Source of the DNA: Atribacterota bacterium
Lineage (GTDB): Bacteria > Atribacterota > Phoenicimicrobiia > Phoenicimicrobiales > Stramentimicrobiaceae
NCBI GenBank assembly: GCA_040767965.1
Contig: JAXGNR010000011.1
Location: 1 to 62,239, forward strand
DNA: 62,239 nt
Direction of reading: 5' to 3'
Under the pieces are notes generated by a model that saw only the letters and a list, made by a program, of their open reading frames with translations, was not told where the DNA came from and searched no databases. Below are positions 1 to 25,225 of this stretch, one piece after another. The first letter of the stretch is position 1; each line of letters opens with the position of its first letter. The translations under genes and the position numbers were made by a program.

Positions 1-570
1 AAAGATTATCAACAGTATAACACAATATTCCAGGATATAAACAAAGCCATTATGGAAAAAAGGCAGATAAAGATTACTTATTATTCCATTAGTAATGATG
101 AGATAACAAAACGAAACCTTGATCCCATTCACCTGATGTTTCGTGGTGGATTTTGGTATCTGATTGCTTTTTGTCATTTTCGTAATGAAATAAAGATGTT
201 TCGTATTGACCGGATTAATGACTTACAATTGACTGACAAAATCTTTCAGATTCCAGCTGATTTTTCTCTCGCATCTTATATGGGCAAAAGCTGGCAGGTA
301 GTCCGGGGAGAAGGAAAAACTTATCAGGTAGAGATAAAAATATTTCCACCTGCATCGCGCTGGGTCAAAGAAGAGATTCACCATCCTACACAGCAAATCA
401 AATCTCTGGAAAATGGGACAATTCTATTTACGGCAGAAGTTAGTAGCCTTTCAGAAATCAAAAGATGGGTATTGCAGATGGGAAGCTGCACAGAGGTGAT
501 TGCTCCAGAAGAATTAAAGAAAGAGGTCATTAAAGAGATTGAAGGAATGGGAAGGAGGTATGGAAAATAA
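1..570 (+). CDS. WYL-domain transcriptional regulator (WYL + WCX), 5'-truncated by window edge
   Basis: Frame open from base 1. IKITYYS..RNLDPIHL..WYLIAFCHFRNEIKMFRIDRI is the WYL signature; C-terminal WVLQMG..EVIAPEELK is WCX-like. Confidence 0.9.
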   Translation, partial: KDYQQYNTIFQDINKAIMEKRQIKITYYSISNDEITKRNLDPIHLMFRGGFWYLIAFCHFRNEIKMFRIDRINDLQLTDKIFQIPADFSLASYMGKSWQVVRGEGKTYQVEIKIFPPASRWVKEEIHHPTQQIKSLENGTILFTAEVSSLSEIKRWVLQMGSCTEVIAPEELKKEVIKEIEGMGRRYGK

Positions 571-619
571 AAAAGAGTTCTTTGTTTATGGTTTTTTGTA
601 AATTATTTAGGAGGTTTTA

Positions 620-2074
620 ATGGAAAAAGAAAAATGGATTAATGAAATTCACCGGATTTATGCAAAAAGAAAGGTGGATTTATCGTCATACTCATCAAGA
701 GCTCCACACAGAAGAATAGAAGGGCAATTTGGAAGCAGCAGAGCGGTTAAGGGATATGAACATGTAATCGTATATCTGCAACTGAGTCCCAGGATAGATT
801 TTGGAAAAGTTAGACATTTTTTGAGATATCGTCTATTGCAATGGGTAAAAAAGAATTGGGATTATCCCGAAAAATTAGATGTTTTCTTTTTTAATAATGA
901 AGAAGGGAAATTAATTCATAATACCAAATGCTGGACAAGACTATCTGCCCCGATTGTATCATTGGTAGATTTTATTGATAATACAGTCAAAAGTAAAAAT
1001 CCTGGAAATGTTCGAAGATTACATGAATTATATCCCAAAACAACTTTTTCTAATCTATATAGAGATGGACAACATCCTAATAGCAGAGATTTGCTTATAT
1101 TTATATCTGATTATGAGGGTTTTGATGTTGATGAAAAGTTAAAAGAATCATTGAATAGAAAACTAAGAAGAATAATTTGGGTAAAAATGGAAAAAGAAAA
1201 TGAAGTATTCGTTAAAACAAGAAAAATACCATTTTTGGAAAATAATTTTGAAGAAATAAAAAATGAAATTAACGAAGAAGATATTAATAATATAGATAAT
1301 GCGAATACCTCATCAAAAAAATATTTAGATAAATCTGATTTTTATTTATTTTTCAGGATAGAAGACTTGTCGCATATTAATTTAGAAAAACCTATGGAGA
1401 TATCAGGAAATATATTAACTATTGTTGATGATCTCAGAAATCCTTTCAGCAGAATTAGAAATATGGGAGAAACATTTTTTATCCCTACCGATAGAATAAT
1501 AGATCTAAAAAACAAGCTGATTAAACTTGGCATATATCAAATAGAAAAGGAATATTCATCTATTTCTTTTGATGGAAATAGATGGGAATTGATAGTAAGA
1601 ATTAATGGAAGAGAAATTCCTTCAAAAGGTCATAATAATTATCCTCCAAATTGGAGTCAAATTGTTAAGGCGATTGAAGACTGTGTGAAATATAAAAATC
1701 GTCTAAATACAAACAGAATGAAGTTGGTAAATAAAAATAAACAGAAAGGGGTAAGTATTAAAAAGTTAAAGAAGAATAATAATTTATTCAATTATTTAGA
1801 AAAATATCCTCCAGAATGGTGGAAAAATCTTAAAAATGATAAAGAAATAATTATTGAAATTAGAAGCGATAAATCTAAATCATACATAGATTGTTATTAT
1901 AATGGTGGGTGTATTTTAGGTAGACTAGATTGTGATAGAAAAGGTAATCTTAAGGGTACACTACATTATAAGTATATACCCATAAAGTTAAATAGCAATG
2001 GTGATTATGTTAATTATAATTTTAATAATCAGCAGATTGATTTAAATCATATAAACCTAATATACCAAAATTAA
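620..2074 (+). CDS. Composite hypothetical protein: N-terminal VWA-like segment, middle unknown domain, C-terminal start of a nuclease-like protein
   Basis: 484-aa ORF with GGAGG RBS; LLIFISDYEG..RRIIWV is reminiscent of VWA-like domains; the last ~100 aa appear to continue in another frame into 2110-2682. Confidence 0.5.
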   Translation: MEKEKWINEIHRIYAKRKVDLSSYSSRAPHRRIEGQFGSSRAVKGYEHVIVYLQLSPRIDFGKVRHFLRYRLLQWVKKNWDYPEKLDVFFFNNEEGKLIHNTKCWTRLSAPIVSLVDFIDNTVKSKNPGNVRRLHELYPKTTFSNLYRDGQHPNSRDLLIFISDYEGFDVDEKLKESLNRKLRRIIWVKMEKENEVFVKTRKIPFLENNFEEIKNEINEEDINNIDNANTSSKKYLDKSDFYLFFRIEDLSHINLEKPMEISGNILTIVDDLRNPFSRIRNMGETFFIPTDRIIDLKNKLIKLGIYQIEKEYSSISFDGNRWELIVRINGREIPSKGHNNYPPNWSQIVKAIEDCVKYKNRLNTNRMKLVNKNKQKGVSIKKLKKNNNLFNYLEKYPPEWWKNLKNDKEIIIEIRSDKSKSYIDCYYNGGCILGRLDCDRKGNLKGTLHYKYIPIKLNSNGDYVNYNFNNQQIDLNHINLIYQN

Positions 2075-2109
2075 ATAATTTTGATGAAAAATGCAATTTC
2101 ATTAATTAA

Positions 2110-2682
2110 AAACAAATTGAAAATTATTATCCAAAATATTCAGAAAAATGGTTCCAATATCAATTCATTCAAAAGGATTCCTGTTTTATTGATTCTGAAT
2201 TCCAATTTAATAAATTTAGAGGCAATAATTTAAGGATAGATTTGGTAAGAATTGATCCATCTGTAAAAAAAATCATTTTTATTGAATTGAAAGAATTTGG
2301 TAATAAAGAATTATTCAATAATAAAAATACTAGAAATAACAAGGGAAAAAATATTGAAAATCAATTAAGTCTATATGGAAATTTTATCAGTAAAAATAAA
2401 GATGATATTTTAGAATACTATAAAGATTTGTTCGAAGTTAAAAAGAAATTAGAATTGCTTTCCCCTGAAACCCTGAAGATAGATTTAGATGATTACATGG
2501 TTGCTGAAAAACCATTGCTAATTATTGCGGGTTGCACCCAAAAATGGATTGATAATAACGCGGAAGATATTAACAATAGAATTGAAAGTTTTGCTTTAGG
2601 GTGTTTGTATTTTGGAGAGCCAAATAAAAATAGCAATATAACTGTAAAAGGGAAGAACAGGCGGCTTTTTAAAAGAATATAA
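2110..2682 (+). pseudogene. C-terminal part of a frameshifted PD-(D/E)xK nuclease-like gene
   Basis: Frame open from 2110 with no good start: SEKWFQY..IDSEFQF..RIDLV..IIFIELK..IENQLSLY (D..ExK..Q..Y pattern). Confidence 0.55.
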
Positions 2683-2784
2683 ATAAGATCTTTAAAAAAG
2701 TAGATTGGCAAATAATAATAAATTAAATAAAATACTATAGAATTTATCTTAATAAATTTCAATAAAAGAGGATTGTATTAAAAA

Positions 2785-3734
2785 ATGTATGGTTTAAAAG
2801 ATTTAAAAGAAAAAATAAATATTACTAAAACTACTGTAGAATGTCCGGTTAAGGATTGTGATGTGATAGTGGAAAGACAGAGAAAATCATTCAAAAGGGA
2901 AGAAAGGTTTTATTGTCCCAAACATAAAATCTATATATCTCCTTCAACTTTTTGAATATCAAAATGAATCAGATAATTTTCTATGGAAAAACCGGGATGA
3001 TATGGAATTGTTGAAGAAAATAAAGACTGTCAAGAGAGAAAGTAGGATGGCAAGAGATAACAGTGAAGATTCTTTATCATGGAATGTTTTTCGTTTTTAG
3101 AAAAAGAGCAGTTGCTTGAAAAAGTTATGGAAGCAACTTTAGGTGTTCCTATTAAATCGCCTGAAATAATCTATTGGTCCCATGAAACAGAAGGGATGAA
3201 ACTATTACCAACCTGAAATGACGCAGAGAAGTTGTTTTAGTATAAAGATGTATGGGGATCCAGCCAGATGTTATTGCTCAAAACTGAGAATGCTTATTAT
3301 CGAAGCGTCAATAGCAGCACAAACAGCACCCACTAACCTGGATGATGCCAAAAAATATGAAGAGAGGGATAAAGATTTTTACTCTCAAATTTTTAAATCT
3401 GACTTTAATACTGTTGCTGTTCAGGAGAAGAAATATGAATTACTGAGGTTCTGGTTGCTGGGTAACTGGATTGCCAAAGAAAAATTTAGATTTTTATATT
3501 ATCGATTTGGTTTTAGAAGAGAAGGAGCAGGATATTGAAAGTACCTTTGGTCAATTGATTAAGCAGGACAAAAATAAAAGATTTATTCGCATTACCTGGG
3601 AAGATATCTATGAACAGATATTAAATCATGGTACATCTTTAAATGATAGTAACAAGATAATAGAATATTTTAAAAACAAGACGATTGGATATAATGGATA
3701 TGGAAAATTACAAAAGGCCTTTTCAATAGTTTAG
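2785..3734 (+). pseudogene. Multiply frameshifted restriction-endonuclease-like gene with N-terminal Cys/His Zn-finger
   Basis: MYGLKDLK..ECPVKDC..YCPKH..SPSTF, shift at T-run ~2950, ..RDNSEDSLSWNVFRF, shift ~3095; later fragments YELLRFWLLG and RITWEDIY in other frames. Confidence 0.6.
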
Positions 3735-3781
3735 TTCAATACATTTTTTTTGAAATAACTGTAAGAATTAGGAGTAATATT

Positions 3782-3940
3782 ATGTCTGAAAAAAAAGATT
3801 TAGAGCCAAATGATAGGGAAATAGATATTATTGCAGGCGCTATAATTCCAACAAAAAAAGAATTAAAAGAAATGAGAGAAAAATTCAAAGATGATAAAGA
3901 GGTACTAGCAGCCTTAGAGGATGCAGAGACTGTAGATTAG
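3782..3940 (+). CDS. Small hypothetical protein (52 aa)
   Basis: AGGAG RBS; MSEKKDLEPNDREIDIIAGAIIPTKKELKEMREKF..; below the ORF-track cut-off. Confidence 0.55.
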   Translation: MSEKKDLEPNDREIDIIAGAIIPTKKELKEMREKFKDDKEVLAALEDAETVD

Positions 3941-3951
3941 GTTAATCTGTA

Positions 3952-3985
3952 AAAGATATGGGTAACCTGTTTTATATTTGATATA
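3952..3985 (+). repeat. Degenerate copy of array repeat (TTTGACAT type)
   Basis: AAAGATATGGGTAACCTGTTTTATATTTGATATA resembles AAAGACATGGGGGCCAGGTCTTCACATTTGACATA at 20273-20307 at both ends; core is decayed. Confidence 0.4.
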
Positions 3986-4015
3986 ATTTACAATCTTAAA
4001 ATGGAGGTTAATAAA

Positions 4016-4177
4016 ATGAATTATGGAGAAGAAAAAATGTTTTTATTAGAAGAGCTTAAAAAAATTGATAAACAAATTTCAGAATTAGGGTATAGTGAAA
4101 ACTATTTGGAGACCCAACAAGATCTATGGGCATTAAGGCAAGACATAAAAGAAAATCTTAAAGATTTTGAAGTTTAG
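4016..4177 (+). CDS. Small helical hypothetical protein (53 aa)
   Basis: GGAGG RBS; MNYGEEKMFLLEELKKIDKQISELGY.. Confidence 0.55.
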   Translation: MNYGEEKMFLLEELKKIDKQISELGYSENYLETQQDLWALRQDIKENLKDFEV

Positions 4178-4190
4178 GAAAATCAAACGC

Positions 4191-4212
4191 CCAGTTTTTC
4201 TTGTTTGATATA
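4191..4212 (+). repeat. Degenerate array repeat preceding nucleosidase fragment 1
   Basis: CCAGTTTTTCTTGTTTGATATA vs CCAGGTCTTCACATTTGACATA (16/22), at almost the same distance from the TTG start as in the other two copies. Confidence 0.5.
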
Positions 4213-4243
4213 TTGTAAAAATTGAATCTAAGAAGAGATCATT

Positions 4244-4373
4244 TTGAATAATTCAAAAACTAAAATTGTACTCATTTGTCCACTGGATGATGATTACGAT
4301 GCCAGTAAAGAATTACTGGGTTTGCATAATGAATCAGAAGTATCAGGACGAATTGTTTCAGGAAGAAAGACAT
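4244..4373 (+). pseudogene. 5' fragment (copy 1) of MTA/SAH nucleosidase gene, cut at array repeat
   Basis: ICPLDDDYDASKELLGLHNESEVSGRIVS matches the N-terminus of 16797..17528; homology stops just before GGGGTCAAG at 4374. Confidence 0.85.
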
Positions 4374-4440
4374 GGGGTCAAGTCTTGAATTATCAGTTTT
4401 TACTTAAAAATATAAAGCAAACAGAAAACAGTTCTCTGCA
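4374..4440 (+). repeat. Array repeat GGGGTCAAGTCTTGAATTATCAG plus tail
   Basis: 57/67 nt identical, ungapped, to 11407-11473. Confidence 0.9.
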
Positions 4441-4599
4441 TCACTGCTTATAAAAATTTCATAGGAGTTTAACATGGATAAAGTAAGTTTTAACGGGAAA
4501 ATATTTACTTATTTTGAATATGCCAAAGAGTGCGATTTTGAAAAAGATGTAAAAATATTTAAAAATAACAACAAAAAGATAGAATAGTAGAGTTTTTAT

Positions 4600-5136
4600 T
4601 AACCCGTTAGGGCAGAAAACCATGGGCTTGCCCATGGATGAATGAGCAGGCGGCGATATGATAAAATGATAACATGCAAACAAGACTTTCAGGGCACAGC
4701 GCCTATCGTACGGAGTATCATATCGTCTGGATACCTAAATATCGCCGCCGTATCCTAAATCCTGGATTACGTGGATACCTAAGAAAACTTTTTCCTAAGA
4801 TACTCAGGAGCATTCCAGGTTGTGAAATAATAGAATATAACATACAGGTTGATCATATCCATATGATTATGATTATACCGCCAAAATACAGTGTTGCTGA
4901 TGTAATTGGACAGATCAAATCACAGTCGGCCAGTAGACTAAGGAAAAAGTTTTCCTGGCTGTCTAAGGTATACTGGAAAGAGAATATCGTCTGGTCACCG
5001 GGCTACTTTGTCTCAACAGTTGGCATTGATGAGAAAAGTATCATCAAGTATGTCCAATTTCAAGAAAGCCAGGATTTAGGTCAAGCGAAGCTTGAAGGTT
5101 TTTAAAAGTACCACGGGCTTGCCCGTGGATATCTAT
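4600..5136 (+). mobile_element. IS200/IS605-family element (tnpA only); ends approximate
   Basis: Subterminal hairpins CCATGGGCTTGCCCATGG (4620-4637) and CCACGGGCTTGCCCGTGG (5111-5128) flank a Y1 transposase. Confidence 0.85.
4674..5105 (+). CDS. tnpA: IS200/IS605 HUH (Y1) transposase
   Basis: YHIVWIPKYRR, DHIH (HUH), WSPGYFVSTVG, YVQFQ catalytic Tyr motif. Confidence 0.95.
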   Translation: MQTRLSGHSAYRTEYHIVWIPKYRRRILNPGLRGYLRKLFPKILRSIPGCEIIEYNIQVDHIHMIMIIPPKYSVADVIGQIKSQSASRLRKKFSWLSKVYWKENIVWSPGYFVSTVGIDEKSIIKYVQFQESQDLGQAKLEGF

Positions 5137-5212
5137 TAATAAATAATGAGGTTTCATATAATAGGATAGGAATAAAAAATAAATTATTTGATAAACCAAA
5201 AAGGAGTGGAAT

Positions 5213-5260
5213 ATGAAAGATGCACAAAAGCAAATAAAGGGGTCAAATCTTTATTATTGA
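5213..5260 (+). pseudogene. Gene-start stub (MKDAQKQIK) running into array repeat
   Basis: AAGGAG RBS + ATG; frame enters GGGGTCAAATC at 5239 and stops at TGA 5258. Confidence 0.35.
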
Positions 5261-5303
5261 CAATATAAAGAAAAGAAAGAACTCAGGTCTTGAATTATCA
5301 GTT
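5239..5303 (+). repeat. Two tandem array-repeat half-sites
   Basis: GGGGTCAAATCTTTATTATTGACA (5239-5262) and TCAGGTCTTGAATTATCAGTT (5283-5303). Confidence 0.8.
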
Positions 5304-5455
5304 GTTTTGTTTAAAAGGAAGACTCTTCCTATTTGATTCAGACAAAAAGCTTAAATATTAAGGATTTTAATATGAATGAAAAAGAATGGATGAAAATAGT
5401 TAGATATATTTAAATAATATAAAACTTTATTTATTTTATTAAAAGGAGTGCAATC

Positions 5456-5697
5456 ATGATACCAGATTTTCAGAGTATTATGCTTCCCTTGCTTAAAATA
5501 GCAGGTGACAAGAAAGAACATACCTTGCAGGAAATAAGAGAATCCTTGGCTGATTATTTTCAATTGACTGATGAAGATAAGTCAAAGCTTTTATCTAAGA
5601 CCAGGCACCCAGTATTTGGTAATAGGGTTGGATGGGCTAGAACATATTTAAAAAAAGTCGGACTTTTAGAATATACTTCAAAAGAAGAAGGAAGAGA
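5456..5697 (+). pseudogene. mrr: Mrr restriction endonuclease N-terminal (winged-helix) fragment, cut at repeat hairpin
   Basis: MIPDFQSIMLPLL..NRVGWARTYLKKVGLLE is the Mrr N-terminal domain; no catalytic domain follows and the ORF tail is translated repeat. Confidence 0.8.
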
Positions 5698-5748
5698 GGG
5701 TCATGTCTTGAATTATAATTTTTATCTGATATTTCAAGAACTGACCCC
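5698..5748. repeat. Complete REP-like hairpin form of array repeat
   Basis: GGGTCATGTCTTGAA-N20-TTCAAGAACTGACCCC: arms are inverted copies of the repeat core. Confidence 0.9.
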
Positions 5749-5769
5749 AAAGACAAAGAGGAATACATT

Positions 5770-8139
5770 TTGTTAAAAAAAATTATTTCAATAAAAAACA
5801 TTGGTGTGCTAAAAGATTGTTACTTTAATTGCAAAGATAATTTTGATAAGGTAAACATTATTTATGGATATAACGGTGAAGGAAAGAGTACTGTTTGTGC
5901 AATTATAAGGTCTTGTATAGAGGGGAAACTATCTTTAATTACTGAGAGAAAAAGTTACTATTGTAAAAGCAATGATGAAATAAGTTGTGATATTTTATGT
6001 CGGGAAAATAGTAACAATTGTTCCTATAAATTTCAAAATGATTCTTGGAATGATAATCTGAAAAATACCATTATCTATGATTCCTATTTTATTGATAACT
6101 GTATACATACTGGATTAAACATTCACTCTGACCACCAAAAAGGGTTATATGAATTTGCCATAGGCGAAGAAGGAGTGTTTCTAAGTAAAAGAATTGAGGA
6201 AATAAAAATAGCCAATAAAAAACTTTTTAGTAAATTAGATAACAAGAAAGTAGTCATAAGAGCTTTAGCTAAAAATAAGTTTTCAATTGAAGAATATATA
6301 TTATTGAAAAAAGAACCTGAAATTGATGCCAAAATAGAAATAATTGAGAGAAAAATTGGAACAGCAAAGGTAAATGATGAAATAAAGAAAAAAGAAAAGC
6401 TATACGAAATTGACAGAATTAATACTTCTATTGATTTTAAAGAATTGAAGACTTTATTAGAAAAAACAATCAAAAATGTTTCTACAGATTCCTCTGAAAA
6501 AGCCAAAAAGTATTTAGACAAATTAAACAATACAATGGAAGGTAATGCAGAAGAATGGCTGCAACAAGGTCTCAATAATTATGAGTCATTAACAGATAAT
6601 AAATGTCCTTTTTGTCAAAAAGAATTGTTTCCTGATGATGAAATAATAATTATATATAATAATTATTTCAATCGGGAATTTAAAAATTATAAGATAGGTT
6701 TAACAGATTTTTCAAATAGGTTGGGCATGTATTCTATAGATATAGAAATTCAAAAGATTGAGAACATTGCTAATAATAATAATTCATTAATGGAATTTTG
6801 GAAAAATCATTTAGAAGTAAAAGAGTATCCCTTTATTGATTTTAAAGATTCTGAGGAAAATACTAAGAAAGATGCCAAGAAAAATCTTAAGAAAAAAATA
6901 AAAGAAGATTACCTCAATATAAAATTAACAATGGAAAATAAATTAAAAAAAATACTTGATTCGGTGAAAACGAATTCTATAGATGATTTCTTAAAAAGTT
7001 TAGAAGAAATAAATAATAAAATATATGAATACAATATCATTTGTAAAAATATAAATAATAAAATATATGAATTAAAAAATAAACAACCTAATTTAGTGAA
7101 TCTGAAAAATGAAAAAGAATCTCTGGAGATTAAGAAAGAAAGATTTGAAGAAAAAAATGAAAATTATTGTAGAATTTATGATTTAATTAACAAAAAAATT
7201 AAAAGAAATCAGGAACAGGTTACTGAATTAAGTGAAAAATTAAAAAAAGATATTAATTCTAAAATAGAAATATATGGTGAATCAGTAAATGGATATCTAG
7301 AAAAATTTGGATTACCATTTAAAATTGTTAATGCTAAATCTAAATATAAAGGGACAAGCATAGAACCTTACCTTGATTATTACCTTCAAGTTAAAGAAAA
7401 TAAAATAAATCCTTTACAAAAAGCACGATATGTCTTAAGCGATGGTGATAAAAATTCCCTTGCCTTATCCTTCTTTTTTGCCAGATTAGATGTAGAACAG
7501 GATATTAAAGATAAAGTAGTTATTTTGGATGACCCGGTTTCCAGTTTAGACAGAAATCGTAGAATGAGGACAATTGAATGTATAAAAGATTTTTCCAGTA
7601 GATGTTCACAAATAATTGTTTTAACACACTATGATATATTCGCATTTAAACTATATGAAGACCTTTCTGAAACACTTAAAAATATCAAAACATTCCAAAT
7701 AAAAAATTCAAAAATTAATAATTGGGATATTGCTGAAGAAAGCAAACATCAATATTTTCAAGATATTGATAAATTGGAAAAATTCTGTGAGAAAATCGAA
7801 ATATTAAATAATAGAGACGCTGAATATTTAATTAGGAAAGTGCTTGAAAATGCATTGAAATTCAGATATTTCCAACATTTTAAAAATTTGGGAAGTAAAT
7901 GTTGGTTAAGGCCAATGATAGAAGAATTAAAAAAAATTAGTCAAACAGACCCTGCATTCAAATTTAGAAACCCAGATACTAATAGAGTTTTTAATGAGCT
8001 AGATAATCTTTGTGATTTTTCAAATACATTCCACCATGCAAATTCAGATAGACCTTATAGGGATATAAATACCTATGACGAACCAGAGATTAGAAATTAT
8101 GCTCAATCCACTTTAGAACTAGTATTTAACGATTTATAG
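5770..8139 (+). CDS. Rad50/SMC-like ABC ATPase with zinc hook, RloC-like anticodon nuclease candidate
   Basis: Walker A GYNGEGKST, zinc hook CPFC, coiled coils, signature LSDGDK, Walker B ILDDPVSSLD, LTH switch; C-terminal helical domain IRKVLE..NTFHH (HEPN-like). Confidence 0.8.
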   Translation: MLKKIISIKNIGVLKDCYFNCKDNFDKVNIIYGYNGEGKSTVCAIIRSCIEGKLSLITERKSYYCKSNDEISCDILCRENSNNCSYKFQNDSWNDNLKNTIIYDSYFIDNCIHTGLNIHSDHQKGLYEFAIGEEGVFLSKRIEEIKIANKKLFSKLDNKKVVIRALAKNKFSIEEYILLKKEPEIDAKIEIIERKIGTAKVNDEIKKKEKLYEIDRINTSIDFKELKTLLEKTIKNVSTDSSEKAKKYLDKLNNTMEGNAEEWLQQGLNNYESLTDNKCPFCQKELFPDDEIIIIYNNYFNREFKNYKIGLTDFSNRLGMYSIDIEIQKIENIANNNNSLMEFWKNHLEVKEYPFIDFKDSEENTKKDAKKNLKKKIKEDYLNIKLTMENKLKKILDSVKTNSIDDFLKSLEEINNKIYEYNIICKNINNKIYELKNKQPNLVNLKNEKESLEIKKERFEEKNENYCRIYDLINKKIKRNQEQVTELSEKLKKDINSKIEIYGESVNGYLEKFGLPFKIVNAKSKYKGTSIEPYLDYYLQVKENKINPLQKARYVLSDGDKNSLALSFFFARLDVEQDIKDKVVILDDPVSSLDRNRRMRTIECIKDFSSRCSQIIVLTHYDIFAFKLYEDLSETLKNIKTFQIKNSKINNWDIAEESKHQYFQDIDKLEKFCEKIEILNNRDAEYLIRKVLENALKFRYFQHFKNLGSKCWLRPMIEELKKISQTDPAFKFRNPDTNRVFNELDNLCDFSNTFHHANSDRPYRDINTYDEPEIRNYAQSTLELVFNDL

Positions 8140-8252
8140 AAAGATTTTTCTCATTATTTTAACCTGTATATTCTTAATTGATTAAATAAAGTAATATTTT
8201 TTCATTTAAATATAAAAAAAATAAAGAAAGCAAAGAGGTATTTTTTTATATT

Positions 8253-8540: not shown

Positions 8541-8587
8541 AAGAATAATTTTTTATAAATAAAATTGAATATATAGGGGTTTTATAA

Positions 8588-13940: not shown

Positions 13941-13950
13941 TGATAATCTA

Positions 13951-16033: not shown

Positions 16034-16037
16034 ATAA

Positions 16038-16715: not shown

Positions 16716-16738
16716 AGTAATGAGAAAATAGTAATACT

Positions 16739-16763
16739 GTGGTAAGGTCTCAATGTTTGCCAT
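16739..16763 (+). repeat. Diverged array repeat in front of intact nucleosidase
   Basis: 16739-16799 aligns without gaps to 20282-20342 from repeat to TTG start. Confidence 0.75.
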
Positions 16764-16796
16764 AAAACACAACATATAATTTAATAAGAGGTTATT

Positions 16797-17528: not shown

Positions 17529-17617
17529 GAAAGAAGCTAAAGCCACAAATTTTTAATATTAACTGTTGTTTTTTTGATAATGTTTCTTAAGATAGTATTT
17601 ATAAATTGGGGGTTTAA

Positions 17618-18268
17618 ATGAAATTTTATTTATTTTCTACAATTGAACTTGAAATTCCTGATCCTGTCTCTCTAGTTGAATGCTATTGTTACCAGAGTGA
17701 TTTTTATTCCAAGTATGATGTGATAGGAAATCGTAAAATTGAAGATGTAAATAAGATTGGAGCAAGACTAACAAGTGATGTAATTTCAAAATGTAGGGTT
17801 GTAGTTGAAAACACCATGGGATTAGATATATTTCAGAATACACTTGCTCAATTTTTGGATTTAGACAGACAGGAAAGAGAAAAACAGATCAAAGAATTAA
17901 ATGGTGTAGTTTTTCAAAAACTCTTTAAAATTAATGGAATCCGTTTTTCTACTGCAACAAAGATTCTGCATACAATTTACCCTGAGATTATTCCGATGAT
18001 TGATAATCCACTACAAAGAAAATACAAAAAAGAAATCAATCATTCCTGGACTTATAAAAATGCTGATGAAATTTTAATAGATTTTTATAATAATTTGGAA
18101 AATGAGGATATTAGAAAAAATTTAAATGAGCTTTCTACTGAGCTAATCAAAATCAATCTTAAGCATCTTACTAAAATTAGAATCTTTGATATTCTCTGGC
18201 GGTCTTATCTGAAAGCAGAAAGATTGAAGAATTTAAGGAATATTAATTGGACCTCGATTTTGTATTGA
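17618..18268 (+). CDS. DUF6308-like (helix-hairpin-helix) hypothetical protein
   Basis: GIRFSTATKILHTIYPEIIPMIDN..TKIRIFDILW. Confidence 0.55.
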   Translation: MKFYLFSTIELEIPDPVSLVECYCYQSDFYSKYDVIGNRKIEDVNKIGARLTSDVISKCRVVVENTMGLDIFQNTLAQFLDLDRQEREKQIKELNGVVFQKLFKINGIRFSTATKILHTIYPEIIPMIDNPLQRKYKKEINHSWTYKNADEILIDFYNNLENEDIRKNLNELSTELIKINLKHLTKIRIFDILWRSYLKAERLKNLRNINWTSILY

Positions 18269-18314
18269 TAATCGTTACCAGAGTGATATTTATTATATAT
18301 ATTAGTTAATTAAT

Positions 18315-18378
18315 TTGACATTGTCCAATTAAAGCATTAATATATTTACAATAATATAATATTACAATAATTGGAGAA
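18315..18378 (+). promoter_or_regulatory. abiE promoter with long inverted-repeat operator
   Basis: TTGACA 18315-18320; 26-bp arms 18321-18346 and 18353-18378 match 20/26 as inverted repeat. Confidence 0.7.
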
Positions 18379-18384
18379 TAACCA

Positions 18385-19227
18385 ATGAATGCAAGAAATA
18401 ATAGTAAGCATACTAGAAAAGGTATAGAAATGATCAGGAAGCTTTCTGAAGAAGGGAAACAAATATTTACTGTTAGTGATGCTAAAAAGATTGCTCCCTT
18501 TTGTGAGATATCAGAGCAGTATGTCAATGAAGCCTTGTATTACCTTGCAAAAGATGGTTGGATAAAAAGACTTAAAAGAGGCTTATACTTGATTTCTTCA
18601 TCCTTTCCAGGAATAGTGCCAGCACATGAATTTGAAATTGCCATGTTTTTAGTAGAACCTGCTGCTATAAGCCATTGGTCTGCTCTTCATTTTCATGGCA
18701 TGACAGAACAAATACCAAATAAAGTCTATATAACAACTTCAGGTAATATTTCAGCTGAGAGAAAAATAAATTCACAAAACAATAATTTAAAGGGCTTCAG
18801 CAGAAAGATAAATAATATTATATATGTTTTTATTAAGGTCAAACCGGAAAGATTTTTTGGTGTTAAAGAATATTGGGTTGGCGAGAAAAAAGTTACCATC
18901 ACTAACCCGGAAAGAACGTTGATAGACGGTTTGGTATCTCCAGGATATTTTGGAGGATGGGCTGAAATATATAATGCTTTTGAATTACATGTCTCAAGAG
19001 TTAATATAAATAAACTAATCAGTTATGCTATGAGGCTTGATGCATCTGTAGTGAAAAGATTAGGATGGATATTAGAAAAAAATGGATTTGAAGAAAAAAA
19101 ACTGCAAAAGTTGATAGCTTTTCCTATCAAAGGGTACCGTATCCTTGATTCTAGCGGCTTTCAAACGGGGCCTTATAATAAAAAATGGATGATTCGAGAA
19201 AACATTTCAGTAAAGGGAATGAAATGA
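18385..19227 (+). CDS. abiEi: Type IV TA antitoxin AbiEi family
   Basis: N-terminal wHTH (GWIKRLKRGLY), ISHWSALHFHGMTEQIP, TNPERTLID, KRLGWILE. Confidence 0.88.
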   Translation: MNARNNSKHTRKGIEMIRKLSEEGKQIFTVSDAKKIAPFCEISEQYVNEALYYLAKDGWIKRLKRGLYLISSSFPGIVPAHEFEIAMFLVEPAAISHWSALHFHGMTEQIPNKVYITTSGNISAERKINSQNNNLKGFSRKINNIIYVFIKVKPERFFGVKEYWVGEKKVTITNPERTLIDGLVSPGYFGGWAEIYNAFELHVSRVNINKLISYAMRLDASVVKRLGWILEKNGFEEKKLQKLIAFPIKGYRILDSSGFQTGPYNKKWMIRENISVKGMK

Positions 19228-20088
19228 AACCAATTAGAAAAAGACTAGAGGAAGCAAGAAAAGAAACTGGCTTACCATGGGAAATAATTGAAAAGGATTA
19301 TATTCTTTCTTGGATTTTAGCTGGTATTGCTACCAACAAAGCATTAAAAAACGAATTGATATTTAAAGGAGGAACTGCATTAAAAAAGTGTTATTTTGGA
19401 GATTATAGGTTTTCAGAGGACCTTGACTTTAGTTTAAAAAAATAATATTTCAGGGGAAAATATTCTAGAACAAGAGATTAAAAGGTCTTGTAAGGTTGCT
19501 GTAGATTTGGTTCAGAAGTTTTCACCTCTTGAGTTGAAAATTGAAAAATATACGGAAAAGCAAAGTCATCCAGATAAACAAGAAGCATTTACTGTTAGAG
19601 GTAAATTCCCCTGGCACAGAGATTTTTTTTCGAAAGCCAAGATCGAAATTACAACTAATGAACCAATTATAATGGAACCCAAAAAAAGAAATATTATTCA
19701 TGGTTATCAAGAGGATCTATCAAAAGAATTATCCGTTTATTCACTTGAAGAAATTATATCTGAAAAATTAAGAGCAATATTACAACATTTAAAGAAATTA
19801 GAACAAAGAGGTTGGACAAGATCACGAGCAAGGGATTATTATGATTTATGGAGAATCTTTAATGCTTATAATAAAGATTTAAATTTGAATAACATACCAT
19901 CAGTCTTTCTAAAAAAATGTGAAGTTAAAGATATTAATTTTTCAGGGGCAGATGCTTTTTTTGATGAGAGATTATTGACATATATTGCTGATACTTGGAA
20001 TCAATGGTTAGGTCCTTTGGTTCCAGATCTGCCAGAGTTTCAGTTAGTAATAGATGATTTAAGAGAAAAGATCTACCAGTTATTTTAA
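19224..20088 (+). pseudogene. abiEii: AbiEii nucleotidyltransferase toxin, frameshifted at A7 run 19436-19442
   Basis: ATGA overlap with abiEi; EKDY, FKGGTALKK, RFSEDLDF, then EKLRA and RARDYYDLW in the next frame. Confidence 0.85.
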
Positions 20089-20269
20089 TTAAGAATATAT
20101 TTATTTTTTCCAATATCTATATAGATATTCCCAATAATACAGATAAAAATTAGCATAAGTGGAGACAGGTATTTTCAGAATTATTTTTTTATAGTCTGAT
20201 GATTCTTACTGACTATTACAAAAAAGCCTAAAATTGATGCAAGCTAAAACATCTATATAATTGGCGAAT

Positions 20270-20306
20270 AAGAAAGACATGGGGGCCAGGTCTTCACATT
20301 TGACAT
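20270..20306 (+). repeat. Array repeat (TTTGACAT type)
   Basis: AAGAAAGACATGGGGGCCAGGTCTTCACATTTGACAT; first 15 nt identical to 4363-4377. Confidence 0.88.
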
Positions 20307-20339
20307 AAAATACAAAATAGAAAACAATAAGAGGTCATC

Positions 20340-20513
20340 TTGAACAATCAAAAATTTAAAATTGTAATCATTTGTCCCCTTGATGATGAATATTATGCTT
20401 GTAAAGAAATACTGGGTTTGCAGAATGAATCAGAAGTAGCAGGACGAATTGTTTCAGAAAGAAAAAAGGATAATGTAAAAGTAGTTACAATTAAATCAAG
20501 AGTTGATAAAATA
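20340..20513 (+). pseudogene. 5' fragment (copy 3) of MTA/SAH nucleosidase gene
   Basis: 58 codons colinear with 16797..; followed by TTTGACAT and GGGTCAGATATTG (20543) repeat remnants. Confidence 0.85.
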
Positions 20514-20680
20514 TTTGACATTGGCTTTTTAGGTCAGTCAATGGGTCAGATATTGTCTTGAAATACAAACCTTACCCTTTATTCGTAAATCATCTTCCCA
20601 TCCTTCAATTGTTTCTTGATTCTCTGTACCCATTTTAACGACTCCTGTCTGGGCAGGGCGTCTTTGGTCACATTATTGCA

Positions 20681-20910
20681 TAGTATTTAGCCGTTAGTAT
20701 TTGGTATTTAGTGTAAAAACTGTAAGAGAATGAAATGATGGAACGTTGGAATTATGCAATAGTGGAAGATTGGAAATCAAGAAAAGACAACATTTAAAAT
20801 ATTTATTCACATTTTTACATTCTTCCAATATTCCATTGTGCTAGGCTATACAGCTTTGAGTAAAAAATTATTTTCTCTTTTTCTAAAAACTAAAAACAGA
20901 AAACTAAAAA
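20681..20910. repeat. Nested inverted short-period repeats (7-mer outer, 8-mer inner)
   Basis: TAGTATT-type x4 (20681-20708) opposed by CTAAAAA-type x4 (20883-20910); TGGAAnnn-type x6 (20731-20778) opposed by TTCCA-type units (~20805-20844). Confidence 0.6.
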
Positions 20911-20968
20911 CCTCTCCCCCAGGAGATATCAGGAGAGATTTGTTTTATTCATCTTAGTATTATTCATA

Positions 20969-21025
20969 TTACCTCAGGTAAGTACCCCTGGGGAAGAAAT
21001 GTAAGTAGGTTGTTACCTGAGGTAA
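20969..21025. repeat. Pair of 13-bp near-palindromes
   Basis: TTACCTCAGGTAA (20969-20981) and TTACCTGAGGTAA (21013-21025) are exact reverse complements, both followed by GTA. Confidence 0.7.
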
Positions 21026-21135
21026 GTAGGGTAAAAAGATAAAAAGTTGAAATTGACTATTATAAAAAGTTAGAATATTCATATTGGGAATTCCATAATT
21101 ATATAAAATGTAAATGGCAATAAAGAGGTGCTTCA

Positions 21136-21921
21136 ATGAAAAAACCAAAATCATCTATAGAGGATTTAAAGGATATTTTTGAAAAAAACATTAAGGCAAG
21201 ACATATCACCGAACCGCTCTATTCTTTTGATTCATCAGCTGATGCCCAGCAAGTTAAGAAAATTATGTATGAAAAAGATTATGATGTTATAGGAATAAGA
21301 GATGGTGGAATAATCCAAGGTTATGCTGTAAGAGGTGATTTGGATAAAGGTCAGCTTGGCATTTATTTCAGGAATTTTAACGAACAGGAAATTTTACCCG
21401 ATAATGCAACAGTTGATGAAGTATTTGACAAGATAAAGATTTATGACCACATTTTTATTACAGCATTTGATAGGGTATCCGGAATTATAAGTCCTGGAGA
21501 TTTAGAAAAAATACCTGTTAGAATGTGGCTGTTTTCTCTTGTTTCTCTAATTGAGATGCAGATGCTTCGAATTATTAGAAATAAGTTCCCCGGAAATAGC
21601 TGGAAAAAGTTTATTTCTTCAGAAGAAAGGTTAAGTGACGCAGAGGAAATATTTAAAGAGCTTAGAAATAAGAACAAAGCGATTGAGTTGGTAGATTGTT
21701 TACAGTTTTGTGATAAGCGTGACATTATTTTGGAGAATCCAGATATTTTAAAACAACTTAAATACAGTAAGAATAAATTTGATGAGTTACTCAAAGATCT
21801 TGAAAACTTAAGAAACAATTTGGCTCATGCTCAAAGCATAATTACTTATCAATGGCCAAAGGCGATTACTTTATCGAAAACAGCGGAAAAACTTCTTACC
21901 AGGTTCGAAGCAATTAATTAA
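21136..21921 (+). CDS. CBS-pair-like + HEPN (Swt1-like) protein
   Basis: IKARHITEPL..YDVIGI..VSGIISPGDL (CBS-like), LIEMQM..LRNNLAH (HEPN RxxxxH). Confidence 0.65.
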   Translation: MKKPKSSIEDLKDIFEKNIKARHITEPLYSFDSSADAQQVKKIMYEKDYDVIGIRDGGIIQGYAVRGDLDKGQLGIYFRNFNEQEILPDNATVDEVFDKIKIYDHIFITAFDRVSGIISPGDLEKIPVRMWLFSLVSLIEMQMLRIIRNKFPGNSWKKFISSEERLSDAEEIFKELRNKNKAIELVDCLQFCDKRDIILENPDILKQLKYSKNKFDELLKDLENLRNNLAHAQSIITYQWPKAITLSKTAEKLLTRFEAIN

Positions 21922-21983
21922 AAATCAAATAGTTTTTAATCTATGTAAAAATAAAAAGCAGCAATATTGAAAAGGGGGACAGG

Positions 21984-22259
21984 TTGAAAAAATATATTAC
22001 TGAATATCTAAAAGCAGCTCATAAACATTCTATCTTTCATAAAAAGGAAATTATGGAAAGTGAGTTATGTGGCTGCTTTAATTGTTTACGCACATTTACT
22101 CCGGATGAAATTTTCTATTGGGTTGATGAGGAGAATCCAAAGAGTTCTACCGCTATGTGTCCTTATTGTAACATTGATGCTGTTATCGGCTCTAAATCCG
22201 GTTTCCCTGTTGATGACCAGGATTTTTTGGAGGAGATGCAAAGACATTGGTTTGGATGA
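21984..22259 (+). CDS. Small Cys-rich Zn-binding hypothetical protein
   Basis: AHKHS..CGCFNC..TAMCPYCNIDAVIG. Confidence 0.75.
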   Translation: MKKYITEYLKAAHKHSIFHKKEIMESELCGCFNCLRTFTPDEIFYWVDEENPKSSTAMCPYCNIDAVIGSKSGFPVDDQDFLEEMQRHWFG

Positions 22260-22439
22260 TGAGCTGCTCCCAAAAACAAAAGATTTAACATAATATGCCA
22301 TTCTTTAAACAAAATACAGAGCAGGATTTGGGGTTTTATATTTTCAACAAAGATCAGGTATTTGCTGAGAACTTTTTGTAATAATAAAACAAAATTAAAA
22401 TATAGAAGGGTATTTATTTTAATTTAAAAATGTTAGGAC

Positions 22440-22468
22440 TTGACATTTAAATCATAACATCTTATAAT
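22440..22468 (+). promoter_or_regulatory. Consensus sigma70 promoter for DGQHR-ARPP-1 pair
   Basis: TTGACA-17 nt-TATAAT exact match; AGGAGG RBS downstream. Confidence 0.85.
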
Positions 22469-22495
22469 TTTATTACACAATCAGGAGGTAGTAAA

Positions 22496-23812
22496 ATGGG
22501 ACTAAAAATTACAGGAGTTAAATTTATTCAGCATGATACTCATTTTATCATTGGGTATGCCAAGGCGGGGGATATCTTAAGACAAATCAGGGTTGATGAA
22601 TGGAGTATTGCCAATCCTAAAGGATACCAGCGTAGGGCAATTGAGAGAAGGGCAAGAGAATTTGGTAATTTTATTGCCAATAACGGTATTTCCCCCAGTG
22701 CAGTCTTATTAAATATTAGAGATATAGATATAAATGATATACATAAAATCAATGAAAATGAATTTGAGGTTCCTGCTGGTATAAATTTGTGGATAGTTGA
22801 CGGACAGCATAGATTAAAGGGCTTAGAACTTGCCAGCATGAAATATCCTGATGTTTTAGAAATAAATATCCCAGTTATTATATTAAATTTACAATCAGCC
22901 GATCCGGATTTAACCAGAAAACAAGAAGCTACCCAATTCCTTATCATTAATAAAACCCAGAAAGGTGTTCGTTCTGATTTGGCTGAACGTATTTTAGCCC
23001 AGGAAGAAGTAAAGAAGGAACAGCATGAAAATCTGGATATACCAACTTTTTTAAGAAGAAATAGTAAATTAGAAATTGATCAGAATGAAGTAATCAAAGA
23101 AAAATCAGAATACCTGTATAACAAATCTTATAATATGTCGATGCCGCCCATTTATAAAGACAATCTTAAAGCAATCGATAAAGAATCATCTCACATCAAT
23201 TTCAACCAAAGTGTCCTTCCAAGTAATCTCAGAAGAGAATTGCGCTGGAAACCCCGGGCTGTGTATATTGCTGATTTACTTAATAATCGACTGGATTCTC
23301 CACTACAGGGTAAAATGAAATTACCCAATAGCCGTCCCAGGGGTACTACCTTCAGCCAGGTTTCCATGGTCGGTTCACTGAAAAATGTTTTGAGTACAGC
23401 ACCCTTTTCAAGTTTGTCCGAGGATGAGATAGCTTCTGTCCTTATCAACATGTGGAAAGCAGTCAAAGAGCTTTGCCCGGAGCCCTTCCAGGAAGTGGAA
23501 AGAAAACAAAGGGCGGATGATTATGTTTTGTTAAAGACTACTGGAATATTTGTCATACCAAAAATATTGATTGGTATAAACTCCTATATGCCCCATGATA
23601 ATGAACGTCATATTTATACTATGGAGGTTTTCGAGAGTTTCCTGTCCCGTGCTGGTCGGTTGATGGAAGCAGGCTTCTGGCGTTCAGCTGGACCTGGTAC
23701 TGCTGGCTCCTATGGTACAGGCCAGAAGAGTTTTTCTTATATTGCTCAGCAGATTATAAAACGAATTATCACGAAGGGAGATGATCGAGGAAAGCAAAAT
23801 GTAATTTTGTAA
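22496..23812 (+). CDS. DGQHR-domain (DndB/ParB-like) protein
   Basis: GYQR, WIVDGQHRL, QFLIINKTQKGV. Confidence 0.88.
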   Translation: MGLKITGVKFIQHDTHFIIGYAKAGDILRQIRVDEWSIANPKGYQRRAIERRAREFGNFIANNGISPSAVLLNIRDIDINDIHKINENEFEVPAGINLWIVDGQHRLKGLELASMKYPDVLEINIPVIILNLQSADPDLTRKQEATQFLIINKTQKGVRSDLAERILAQEEVKKEQHENLDIPTFLRRNSKLEIDQNEVIKEKSEYLYNKSYNMSMPPIYKDNLKAIDKESSHINFNQSVLPSNLRRELRWKPRAVYIADLLNNRLDSPLQGKMKLPNSRPRGTTFSQVSMVGSLKNVLSTAPFSSLSEDEIASVLINMWKAVKELCPEPFQEVERKQRADDYVLLKTTGIFVIPKILIGINSYMPHDNERHIYTMEVFESFLSRAGRLMEAGFWRSAGPGTAGSYGTGQKSFSYIAQQIIKRIITKGDDRGKQNVIL

Positions 23813-23828
23813 TCTATTTAGTTAGGAA

Positions 23829-24824
23829 GTGAAAAAAATGGAAAAGATAATAAGTGATTTTATCTCACAAATACACTTTGGAGAAGTGCAGAGTTATCAG
23901 AATATGCAGGTAATTCCTTTGTACTCAGATATCAAAGAAAACTTGCTTTATCTGACCTTAAAGGAAGCCCTGGAGAAGAGATTGCTGGTTATCCAGGAAG
24001 TAAGTACAGGGGGCTCGGTACCTGAATTAAAAGTAATCAATCACTCTGATACCCGGGTATTGTTAGTAGACGGAGAGGAATTATCAGGAGCCAAGCAAAA
24101 TAGAGTATTGAATACCACCATTCTGGTAAAAGGGAAATCAGAGCTGAATATACCGGTCAGCTGCACCGAACAGGGACGATGGTCCTACCAGACAGATAGT
24201 TTTTATGATTCAGATATTATTTCTCCAACTTTTTTAAGAGCCAAAAAGGCATCTTCGGTCAATATTTCCTTGAAACAGGACAGAGGTTATCATTCTGATC
24301 AACAGGAAGTGTGGGAAAATGTTGCTTTCTTACGCAATAGTGCCAGGGTTAATTCTGCTACCGGCGCGATGAAGGATGTTTTTAAGCAAAAGGAAACAAA
24401 TTTAGAGGAATACCTTGAAGCCTTTCAGTGTTTACCTTACCAGAAGGGCATCTTTGTTTTTATTGATGGAGAGATTGCCGGCTGGGATATCCTCTCCCGT
24501 GAATCATCTTTTGCGCTTATTTTTCCGAAACTGGTCAAGAGTTATGCCATGGATGCTTTGTTAAAAGAAGAGAAGAAAGTGGTCACATGCCGGAATCCAA
24601 TAGAAGAAGCCAGGCATTTTTTGGAAGGAATACAAGATTGCAAGGAGGACAAATATCCATCAACAGGTCAGGGATTTGATTATCGCTTTGAAGGAGAAGA
24701 TAAAGTTGGTTCGGCTCTGGTTGTTGAGAATGAGATTATTCATATGGCTTTTTTCAGGACGACCAGGGAAGAAAAAACTGGCAGGATGTCCGGGTATAAG
24801 AGGAGAAGAGGATATCGGATTTGA
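23829..24824 (+). CDS. ARPP-1 / DUF6569 family protein
   Basis: GGSVPELKV..LLVDGEELSGAKQNRVLNTTILV..IPVSCTEQGRW..Q.EVW. Confidence 0.75.
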   Translation: MKKMEKIISDFISQIHFGEVQSYQNMQVIPLYSDIKENLLYLTLKEALEKRLLVIQEVSTGGSVPELKVINHSDTRVLLVDGEELSGAKQNRVLNTTILVKGKSELNIPVSCTEQGRWSYQTDSFYDSDIISPTFLRAKKASSVNISLKQDRGYHSDQQEVWENVAFLRNSARVNSATGAMKDVFKQKETNLEEYLEAFQCLPYQKGIFVFIDGEIAGWDILSRESSFALIFPKLVKSYAMDALLKEEKKVVTCRNPIEEARHFLEGIQDCKEDKYPSTGQGFDYRFEGEDKVGSALVVENEIIHMAFFRTTREEKTGRMSGYKRRRGYRI

Positions 24825-24841
24825 TAGGGTAATTAGTCTTA

Positions 24842-24878
24842 GAGTTAAATCTTAAAATATAAAATTTTAATCTAACTC
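24842..24878. repeat. Decayed hairpin copy of array repeat
   Basis: GAGTTAAATCTTAAAAT..ATTTTAATCTAACTC; differs from GGGTCAAGTCTTGAA mostly by transitions. Confidence 0.45.
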
Positions 24879-24963
24879 ATAGATTTTTACGCTACTGATT
24901 AATTTTTTAATCTCTTTTTATCTGTATCTGAAATTATTATGCTTTTCTGTGGGATAAGTGGAT

Positions 24964-25003
24964 GAGATTGCTTCATTCTGCTGATGCAGAATTCGCAATG
25001 ACA
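24964..25003. repeat. Small palindromic element of GAGATTGCTTC..CGCAATGACA type
   Basis: GAGATTGCTTC-ATTCTGC-TGAT-GCAGAAT-TCGCAATGACA hairpin; a decayed sibling follows at ~25014-25056. Confidence 0.6.
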
Positions 25004-25173
25004 AAGAGAGGAGAGATTTTTTAGTGCCTCTGGCAGGTCTGAACATTAATATGACAATTAATTAAAAATGTCTTTGAGTGAAAAATGAGTAAGAGAAAGA
25101 TAATGAAACAGGGAATGGTTTTTTGTATCATTCAGAAAAAAATAATAAATACTATGGGAGTAAGGGAGGATTA

Positions 25174-25225
25174 GGTGTCAGATACTGAAATATCAGGTAA
25201 TATTTATAATTTTCGACCTGAGCCC
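25174..25225. repeat. Hairpin form of array repeat near right border of array
   Basis: GGTGTCAGATACTGAAATATCAG (17/23 to GGGGTCAAGTCTTGAATTATCAG) .. TTTCGACCTGAGCCC; about the same length as 5698-5748. Confidence 0.65.

Follow-up and report, generated by a model that had tools for sequence, protein, structure and literature searches.

The DNA analysed here, called the window, comprises 62,239 nt of contig JAXGNR010000011.1 in assembly GCA_040767965.1 (G000; 2.33 Mb) of an Atribacterota bacterium, and its first 25 kb hold an array of accessory genes at whose boundaries short repeats with a GGGGTCA-like head recur. The array is co-oriented, as a first-pass annotation of the sequence had stated: 26 open reading frames or fragments (1..24824) all lie on the + strand, and coding on the minus strand starts only with an IS1595 transposase gene at 25318-26112. 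The same annotation had taken the repeats for a new kind of site in an integron-like cassette system; they fit instead the repeats published for TIRtrons, which share the head GGGGWSAS (PMC3733652, in its available text). Across the window G+C content ranges from 25 to 38%, and GC skew is positive from 1 to ~52 kb. The comparisons below draw on 52 genomes of the same order including G000, none of the 51 relatives belonging to the same genus (G031 and other G-numbers), on other contigs of G000 (C4, C5, C19, C22), and on metagenome contigs (L050, L055, L059).

The pattern GGGGTCAGGTCTTG, with two or fewer mismatches, matches six times in the window against 0.16 expected matches, and none of 100 shuffled sequences reached six. 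Position weight matrices trained on repeat copies outside the window were used to score the window and the whole assembly; the nine copies listed earlier as clear are all present where they had been placed and collapse to eight scored loci, and neither pattern nor matrices find a match in 25,301-62,239, the core half that had been described as free of them. It also stands that some array boundaries have no copy, about half of the island junctions being without a recognisable one. The supposed single repeat family, by comparison, resolves into three sequence subtypes, A, A′ and B, with a relic of a fourth, C. Type A (GGGGTCAGGTCTTCACATTTGACAT) occurs at 16047 and 20282 and, decayed, at 16739; type A′ (GGGGTCAAATCTTTATTATTGACAAT) at 5239; and type B (GGGGTCARGTCTTGAATTATCAG) at 4374, 5279 and 11407, as well as in a full palindrome at 5697-5748 and a decayed one at 25174.

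Two type-B single arms, at 4363..4438 (+; head 4374; 33.9 bits) and at 11396..11471 (+; head 11407; 25.1 bits), the first with a purine-rich 5′ extension and the second standing before the DUF2779 gene, have a 40-nt tail in common, and their units (repeat family D10) are 86% identical over 66 nt. At 5239..5301 (+), counted as one locus, an A′ arm (5239-5264) is followed by a type-B arm lacking the GGGG head (5279-5301), a tandem that is found again in L055. The palindrome at 5697..5748, which has no strand, consists of two type-B arms (22.5 and 36.4 bits) between a truncated Mrr_N fragment, whose homology in relatives stops at 5684 just before the palindrome, and an AAA_13 gene. Type-A single arms lie at 16034..16072 (+; head 16047, 5′ extension GGAAGAAAA; 40.0 bits) and at 20270..20307 (+; head 20282, 5′ extension AAGAAAGACAT; 41.1 bits), the latter followed by the second fragment of a nucleosidase gene, and the decayed type-A arm at 16739..16764 (+; 22.5 bits) forms the leader of the whole nucleosidase gene, its 3′ part being kept in relatives. 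The last scored locus, a decayed type-B palindrome at the right edge of the island (25174..25226, no strand; 14.2 bits; inverted-repeat pair I1), adjoins the IS1595 gene and is 87% identical to C5:20904-21056. All six single-arm loci are on the + strand, in keeping with the earlier claim that half-sites always point the same way, though these orientations are not independent: 16739 and 20282 belong to paralogous gene leaders, and a 66-nt stretch is common to 4374 and 11407; the two further loci are palindromes.

Decayed copies had been proposed at five more places, two of which bear up by homology: a decayed type-A arm and leader before the first nucleosidase fragment (4191..4243, +; 81% to 20286-20464), and an A′ relic together with the stretch that follows it on C5 (24842..24922, +; 88% to C5:16514-16573, which lies just beyond a TIR-A′ copy). 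The candidates at 13962 (13952..14000, +; ..GGGGATAG..ATTATCAGTTTTAC) and at 20543 (20543..20566, +, inside the open frame 20340-20561) are possible decayed type-B arms by resemblance and fall below the score threshold, and the one at 3952 found no support. Two further, unscored relics are placed by resemblance or homology: a type-C-like relic at 571..600 (+; GGGGACGGTTCTTTGTTTGA..., by eye against C5:12875), at the joint of 2.2 kb that is absent from G031 (breakpoint against that genome 621|2785), and an A′ arm with leader relic before the DUF6308-like gene (17560..17590, +), which resembles sequence in G017 and C5 and lies at a joint, 5262>17569, in run X4. When folded, the palindrome at 5697-5748 gives −9.9 kcal/mol (z = −2.9) and that at 25174-25226 does no better than shuffled sequences (z = −0.8); three of four single arms likewise do no better (z = −0.2, −0.8 and −1.0), and one reaches z = −2.65. 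In 4365-4387 and 20272-20294, the AAGAC of the purine-rich extension can pair with GTCTT in the head, making a small stem with GGGGTCA in its loop; this is the fold with z = −2.65 for 20272-20342, and it is not significant for 4365-4445.

The assignment of these repeats to TIRtrons draws on both the arms and the genes that they flank in relatives. A TIRtron is a single gene for a tyrosine transposase (TIRYT) resembling the tyrosine transposases linked to repetitive extragenic palindromes (REPs), known as RAYTs, set between inverted repeats sharing GGGGWSAS, and in some genomes the repeats also occur as single, dimeric or grouped copies (PMC3733652, available text). In the window, the head GGGGTCAG, at 16047 and in the far arm of the 5697-5748 palindrome, fits this consensus; GGGGTCAA, at 4374, 5239 and 11407, departs from it in the last letter, and GGGGCCAG, at 20282, in the fifth. 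Of the 52 genomes examined from this order, 44 contain type A and 28 contain type B, with no hits for reversed-pattern controls. Most copies in relatives are opposite-strand pairs 35-60 nt apart that form 60-nt palindromes, one of which, in G031, folds at −32.9 kcal/mol (z = −10.8); others are inverted pairs 0.9-1.0 kb apart, and single arms also occur. At five of seven fetched loci such an inverted pair brackets one whole Y1 gene of 283-324 aa, whose product starts M(A/S)RPLRI. All four proteins examined combine Y1_Tnp with Bac_DnaA_C (type A) or HTH_23 (type B), and the motifs NHYH and Y..LNP (YLHLNP or YIALNP) are found in proteins of this set of genes. Against NCBIfam NF047646 (REP-associated tyrosine transposase, cut-off 80) the type-B enzymes score 91.8 and 86.6 bits and the type-A enzymes 46.9 and 66.4 bits, and this is the best Y1 model for type A too, with scores above those of the IS200 model. 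Internally deleted mini-elements of 0.15-0.25 kb occur in family f2. A wider comparison found GGGGTCAGGTCT GGGG-headed inverted pairs flanking 20 of 43 related genes, in metagenome-assembled genomes titled Dadabacteria, Nitrospirae, Aminicenantes, Uhrbacteria and delta- and beta-proteobacteria, the closest relatives being titled Atribacterota. The earlier suggestion of REP-like repeats on which a RAYT-type HUH/Y1 transposase would act finds support, and the accompanying statement that palindromes flank RAYT-like genes elsewhere is borne out by the GGGGTCAGGTCT...-headed inverted repeats at five of seven loci in relatives and 20 of 43 in the multi-phylum set. As judged from sequence, there is good support for regarding the repeats as REP-like elements derived from TIRtrons. 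The kind of repeat is known, and what we have here is a further member from a little-studied phylum.

TIRYT enzymes form the second-largest TnpA-Y1 subclass, for which no role is known to us. The TIRYT group has been equated with TnpA-Y1 subclass 2.1, which has C-terminal helix-turn-helix (HTH) tails and corresponds, as tabulated, to RAYT group 1 of Bertels, and in the available text of the defining paper no REP-like sequences are associated with it (PMC6006769). A recombinase had been predicted to lie outside the window, and the cognate enzyme is found outside it, on C19, where a 66-aa TIRYT-A fragment (C19:13304-13501) has a type-A arm 40 nt ahead of it; the contig ends inside the gene, which leaves just the upstream arm in view. 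This fragment is 97% identical over its 66 aa to the copy in G031, although that genome is of another family and its core DNA is only ~70-76% identical, and the near-identity hints at horizontal transfer or strong constraint. A third TIRYT, which G000 carries at C4:184329-185117, has GGGGACGG repeats of its own.

The repeats are concentrated in accessory islands. Eight of the 27 loci in the G000 genome fall within 25.3 kb, or 1.09% of its 2.33 Mb (~27-fold; binomial P = 3.6e-10), and a further four of the 27 lie in a second region, C5:8-24 kb. In G031, four of nine pattern loci are found in 15.5 kb of that genome's contig C10, together with homologues of the WYL, 320-aa and DUF6308-like genes of the window. 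The enrichment, reproduced on C5 and in G031, is real. Elsewhere in G000 palindromes also lie between ordinary genes, and copies in relatives are mostly palindromic dimers on both strands; insertions may simply be tolerated in islands. Within the literature searched by title and abstract we found no description of defence arrays punctuated by REPs or terminal inverted repeats (TIRs), although supplements or figures of PMC3733652 and PMC6006769 may list related TIRs, and the same scope gave no account of defence islands in which co-oriented single arms mark where modules begin.

The single arms point the same way as the genes and usually stand immediately upstream of a gene module. In ten nucleosidase leaders from G000 and family-f1 relatives, ATTTGA(C/T)AT stays where the head has decayed, so that before this gene the 3′ part of the arm (ATTTGACAT) is kept and the GGGGTCAGG head decays, and the TIRYT-A start codons lie ~40 nt downstream of a type-A arm. 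The nucleosidase gene has a type-A arm or its relic upstream in G000 and family-f1 relatives, and its downstream neighbours vary, four of them opening with a type-A′, type-B or type-C arm.

Five joints at repeat starts coincide with the ends of homology to other sequences, at 4368, 11406, 16034, 16745-16768 and 20266-20274. The most extensive case is a 3.5-kb block (16768..20266, +) holding a nucleosidase gene, the DUF6308-like gene, AbiEi and AbiEii, of which there is a copy at C5:12947-16445 (96.4% over 3500 nt). On the left it begins right after the decayed type-A arm at 16739, where homology starts at 16745-16768 in nine alignments from eight comparators, and on the right it stops 4 nt short of the unit of the 20282 arm, homology to C5, G017 and L059 ending or starting at 20266-20274. 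On C5 and in G017 the right end is the same, with a type-A′ arm following it in place of type A. Against L055, which is 92-98% identical, homology starts at 11406, the head of a type-B arm, and again at 16034, the start of a type-A unit, and the genes between differ. The nucleosidase gene is whole in L050; its first copy in the window stops at 4368-4374, at codon 44, where the type-B arm begins, and in G012 the same gene is cut by a type-B arm at codon 145. Over 11 comparators at 85% identity or more, five of 21 breakpoint clusters have a scored repeat start within 30 nt, which random intergenic places match in ~8% of trials (P ~0.08), so the association of breakpoints with arms is suggestive only; counting the unscored relics as well would give a higher number, but as a post hoc choice. 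The commonest breakpoint, at the end of the nucleosidase gene (17528; seven comparators), has no scored arm in the window.

Joints were also sought in Logan metagenome contigs from four runs of four studies (X1, X4 and X9 among them), in which the depth of modules is very uneven. Many joints there touch repeat units, such as 4424>5236, 5262>17569, 5262>4382, 4187>17617, and two that go back to earlier positions, 11472>4452 and 20319>4231; their shorter sides measure 20-56 letters, and additional paralogous copies in the community would account for each of them just as well. In the contigs of these runs no joint was found that only a circle would explain. Nor was a clean pair of filled and empty sites found, the nearest case being a 4.3-kb block (20513-24831) that is missing between the same flanks in L050 and L059; it does not qualify because the joints differ, the nucleosidase fragment of both contigs being broken at codon 44, with a type-C relic at that point. 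In three different contexts a truncation at codon 44 falls at a stretch of purines (GAAAGAAAAGAG) similar to the purine-rich arm extensions, which suggests microhomology as much as an enzyme. Upstream of the WYL gene the sequence could not be followed, the N-terminal half of that gene being on no other contig and no contig end overlapping the window start.

We consider it probable that the repeats are TIRtron-derived REP-like elements that were spread by TIRYT and gathered in the islands, where they serve as joints in rearrangement, with no dedicated apparatus for gene capture. By analogy with TnpA of IS200/IS605 and TnpA-REP of E. coli, the enzyme would cut and rejoin one DNA strand at the repeats, and this single-strand activity would spread non-autonomous copies and leave single arms behind. 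The TTGACA of an arm is predicted to act as a −35 box, and the common orientation could come from selection for promoter use, from strand-specific insertion of single strands on the leading strand, as is known for IS200/IS605 (PMC3333891, available text), or from both. Short shared repeats and their purine-rich 5′ extensions may then act as joints for duplication, deletion and exchange of modules, and such joints would not make up a capture apparatus of the integron kind. Several observations weigh against this explanation or limit it. The G000 assembly contains no TIRYT-B gene and only a fragment of TIRYT-A. A scan with the promoter consensus gave no excess over shuffled sequences (108 sites; 100 ± 10.8 after shuffling), and nothing like a −35 box is present in type B. 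Both in the window and in G012 the nucleosidase gene breaks off right at a type-B arm with the remainder missing, which simple insertion does not explain, and its third copy in the window ends (20513) ~30 nt before the decayed B-like arm at 20543. Several relic assignments (571, 13962, 17560 and 20543) are by resemblance only. An active cassette mechanism would likewise produce enrichment, co-orientation and joints that fall exactly on the starts of repeats, and the same data fit joints made by an enzyme and joints made by recombination at short repeats.

The cassette mechanism, in which a Y1 transposase uses a pair of co-oriented arms as the two ends, left and right, of a unit, cuts out the intervening genes as a circle of single-stranded DNA and puts them back at a different arm, capturing and shuffling defence genes as it does so, seems to us unlikely. 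It would agree with the way modules start with an arm in gene direction (type A ahead of the nucleosidase gene and, in G031 and G015, ahead of a pair encoding a 166-aa protein and DUF262, type A′ ahead of the DUF6308-like gene, and type B ahead of DUF2779), with a module order that differs between genomes, and with the 3.5-kb duplicate, both ends of which abut arms in both copies while the arm that follows the AbiE genes is of a different subtype in each. The nucleosidase gene of G007 stands between co-oriented arms, A′ and A upstream and B downstream, and a related enzyme, TnpA of IS200/IS605, excises single-strand circles between ends on the same strand (PMC3333891, available text). The breakpoints speak against it, however, with just five of 21 high-identity ones near a scored arm, the most recurrent one lacking an arm, and about half of the junctions lacking a copy. 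TIRYT genes are bracketed by inverted rather than direct arms, single arms fold little better than shuffles in three of four cases, filled and empty sites were not found as a clean pair, the metagenome joints that go back have paralogous copies as an equal explanation, and arms also lie between ordinary genes. A TIRYT acting on co-oriented single TIR arms would be an HUH-based analogue of the integron, the arm being a promoter-bearing 5′ end of the module, and it would reshuffle defence islands across Atribacterota and possibly other phyla with GGGGTCAGGTCT heads, an outcome to which we give little credence.

Alternatively, the arms may be regulatory DNA, portable promoter or operator boxes bound for example by the HTH of TIRYT or by a WYL-type regulator, which have no part in rearrangement and travel as the leaders of their own genes; we regard this as a minor possibility. 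TTGACA is contained in types A and A′, the nucleosidase gene and TIRYT-A both have an arm 33-55 nt ahead of their start codons, the 3′ part of an arm outlasts its head, every single arm points in gene direction, and the arm before the pair encoding the 166-aa protein and DUF262 is syntenic in G031 and G015, which belong to two families. Type B, however, lacks the box and yet marks truncation points, arms stand directly after the stop codons of truncated genes, and the promoter scan showed no excess. In G031 three places carry dimers that are identical together with their flanks; this hints at recent copying and also speaks against a purely regulatory role. The concentration of the repeats in islands, and their place at the 5′ ends of modules and at some rearrangement joints, may mean that they help to build such islands as mobile promoters and recombination joints or, less likely, that they are the sites of a new cassette system.

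The resemblance to TIRtrons extends to the enzyme, a Y1 gene with NHYH, Y..LNP and a Bac_DnaA_C or HTH_23 tail, to inverted repeats with the GGGGTCAG head, to extra genomic copies as singles, dimers and groups, and to few gene copies per genome. It differs in the order-wide repeat families with 60-nt palindromes and mini-elements found here, subclass 2.1 having been reported without REP-like sequences in the available text of PMC6006769, and in that half of the G000 loci lie in two accessory islands as co-oriented single arms 5′ of modules. The repeats that are clear here for TnpA-Y1 subclass 2.1 are conserved over the whole order and have a 12-nt head in common with elements of distant phyla. 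With the REP and RAYT systems (TnpA-REP with BIMEs in E. coli; REPINs in Pseudomonas) they have in common short, intergenic, palindromic, non-autonomous repeats that flank a single-copy HUH/Y1 gene, singlets that are decayed doublets, and a presumed movement as single-stranded DNA, but here the head is GGGG with no 5′ GT[AG]G foot, a single arm is not itself a hairpin, copies number tens and not hundreds, and the enzyme has an added HTH domain. The long co-oriented array of accessory genes with a recurring site at many boundaries recalls integrons (IntI, attI, attC). No IntI-type integrase was found in the whole assembly, where the best match (TIGR02249) reaches 78 bits against a cut-off of 265, both loci being on C4, and imperfect palindromes of the attC type, with R″/L″-L′/R′ boxes, were not seen at the 3′ ends of cassettes, most copies being partnerless single arms 5′ of modules. 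The sites also differ from those of integrons in that they may carry a promoter box and leave many boundaries unmarked, and the associated enzyme is of the HUH/Y1 type and not a tyrosine recombinase; the single arms are not folded palindromes.

The comparison with IS200/IS605 and PATEs rests on a related catalytic domain, a strand-specific single-strand mechanism with ends on the same strand, and one genuine copy within the array, a complete element at 4588..5143 (+), the span of its homology in relatives, whose gene at 4674-5105 had gone unmentioned in the first-pass annotation. Its short TnpA scores 119 bits with NF033573 (cut-off 55) and only 29 bits with the RAYT model (cut-off 80), it has GC-rich hairpins of its own near both ends (4620-4637 and 5111-5128), and there are many copies and fragments of it in relatives, as expected of IS200/IS605. 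By these sequence features it is an ordinary insertion and not the source of the enzyme for the GGGGTCA repeats, whose cognate protein is a longer RAYT-type enzyme. That the repeats are ends or solo ends of this element might be thought from the type-B arm 300 nt upstream of its gene and the A′ and B arms 130-170 nt downstream on the same strand, but its own hairpins, a homology span that leaves these arms outside, and the different protein family bracketed by arms in relatives refute the idea, which we hold to be very improbable. Within the island, contig depth in the metagenome runs is by far greatest over this copy (831 in X1, bin 4567-5233).

Genes of the array were assigned from profile matches to Pfam, NCBIfam and PADLOC, and their description as unrelated holds apart from three copies of one nucleosidase-like gene (PNP_UDP_1): a fragment of codons 1-44 ending at the type-B repeat (4244..4375, +), the whole gene (16797-17528, +), and a second N-terminal fragment (20340-20513, +), where homology ends. 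The label of defence array fits AbiEi and AbiEii, the PADLOC candidates PDC-S06 and PDC-S11, a DGQHR/DndB-like protein with ARPP-1 (+) and WYL, the rest of the content not being defence-like, so that "defence island" is a fair name for part of it. A partial WYL/WCX regulator (1-570, +) comes first and is followed by two + strand genes of unrecognised family (484 and 146 aa), which make up 2.2 kb (620-2762) that is absent from G031, and by a gene for 320 aa (2785-3734), in three pieces here and whole in G031 (L043:4198-5160, no Pfam match). The AAA_13 ATPase (5770-8139, +) matches PDC-S06 at 235 bits, and a NucS-like protein matching PDC-S11 at 144 bits adjoins an endonuclease/exonuclease/phosphatase protein (both +). 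Genes or fragments for a TPR protein, DUF2779, a CBS protein and a lipoprotein also lie on the + strand within 1..24824, as does a pentapeptide ion-channel gene (9896-11386), of which C22:107-1147 of the same genome is a paralogue with 75% DNA identity. The repeat and transposase reading accounts for the gene fragments and duplications of this array, which may be of use in annotation.

Within the 3.5-kb block AbiEii is split (19185-19445 and 19507-20088), and on C5 it is whole (15364-16266). The DUF6308-like gene has the same internal deletion (~17705-18176) in G006, G015, G017 and G049 and in contigs of X1, X4 and X9, a pattern that suggests either a deleted allele that is spreading or a derivative of the non-autonomous kind. 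About 425 nt at 20613-21039, skipped in one X1 contig and reaching a depth of 405 in the bin 20575-21241, behave as a small repeated element, and a terminator-like hairpin lies within it on the minus strand (20913-20938). A 97-nt repeat at 24912-25008 is 100% identical to C5:17409-17505, is 98% identical in L050 and L059 beside MazEF-like genes, and is in part 98% identical to C5:20837-20902. The sole Rfam match in the window is an FMN riboswitch (RF00050) at 35422-35576, scoring 109 bits.

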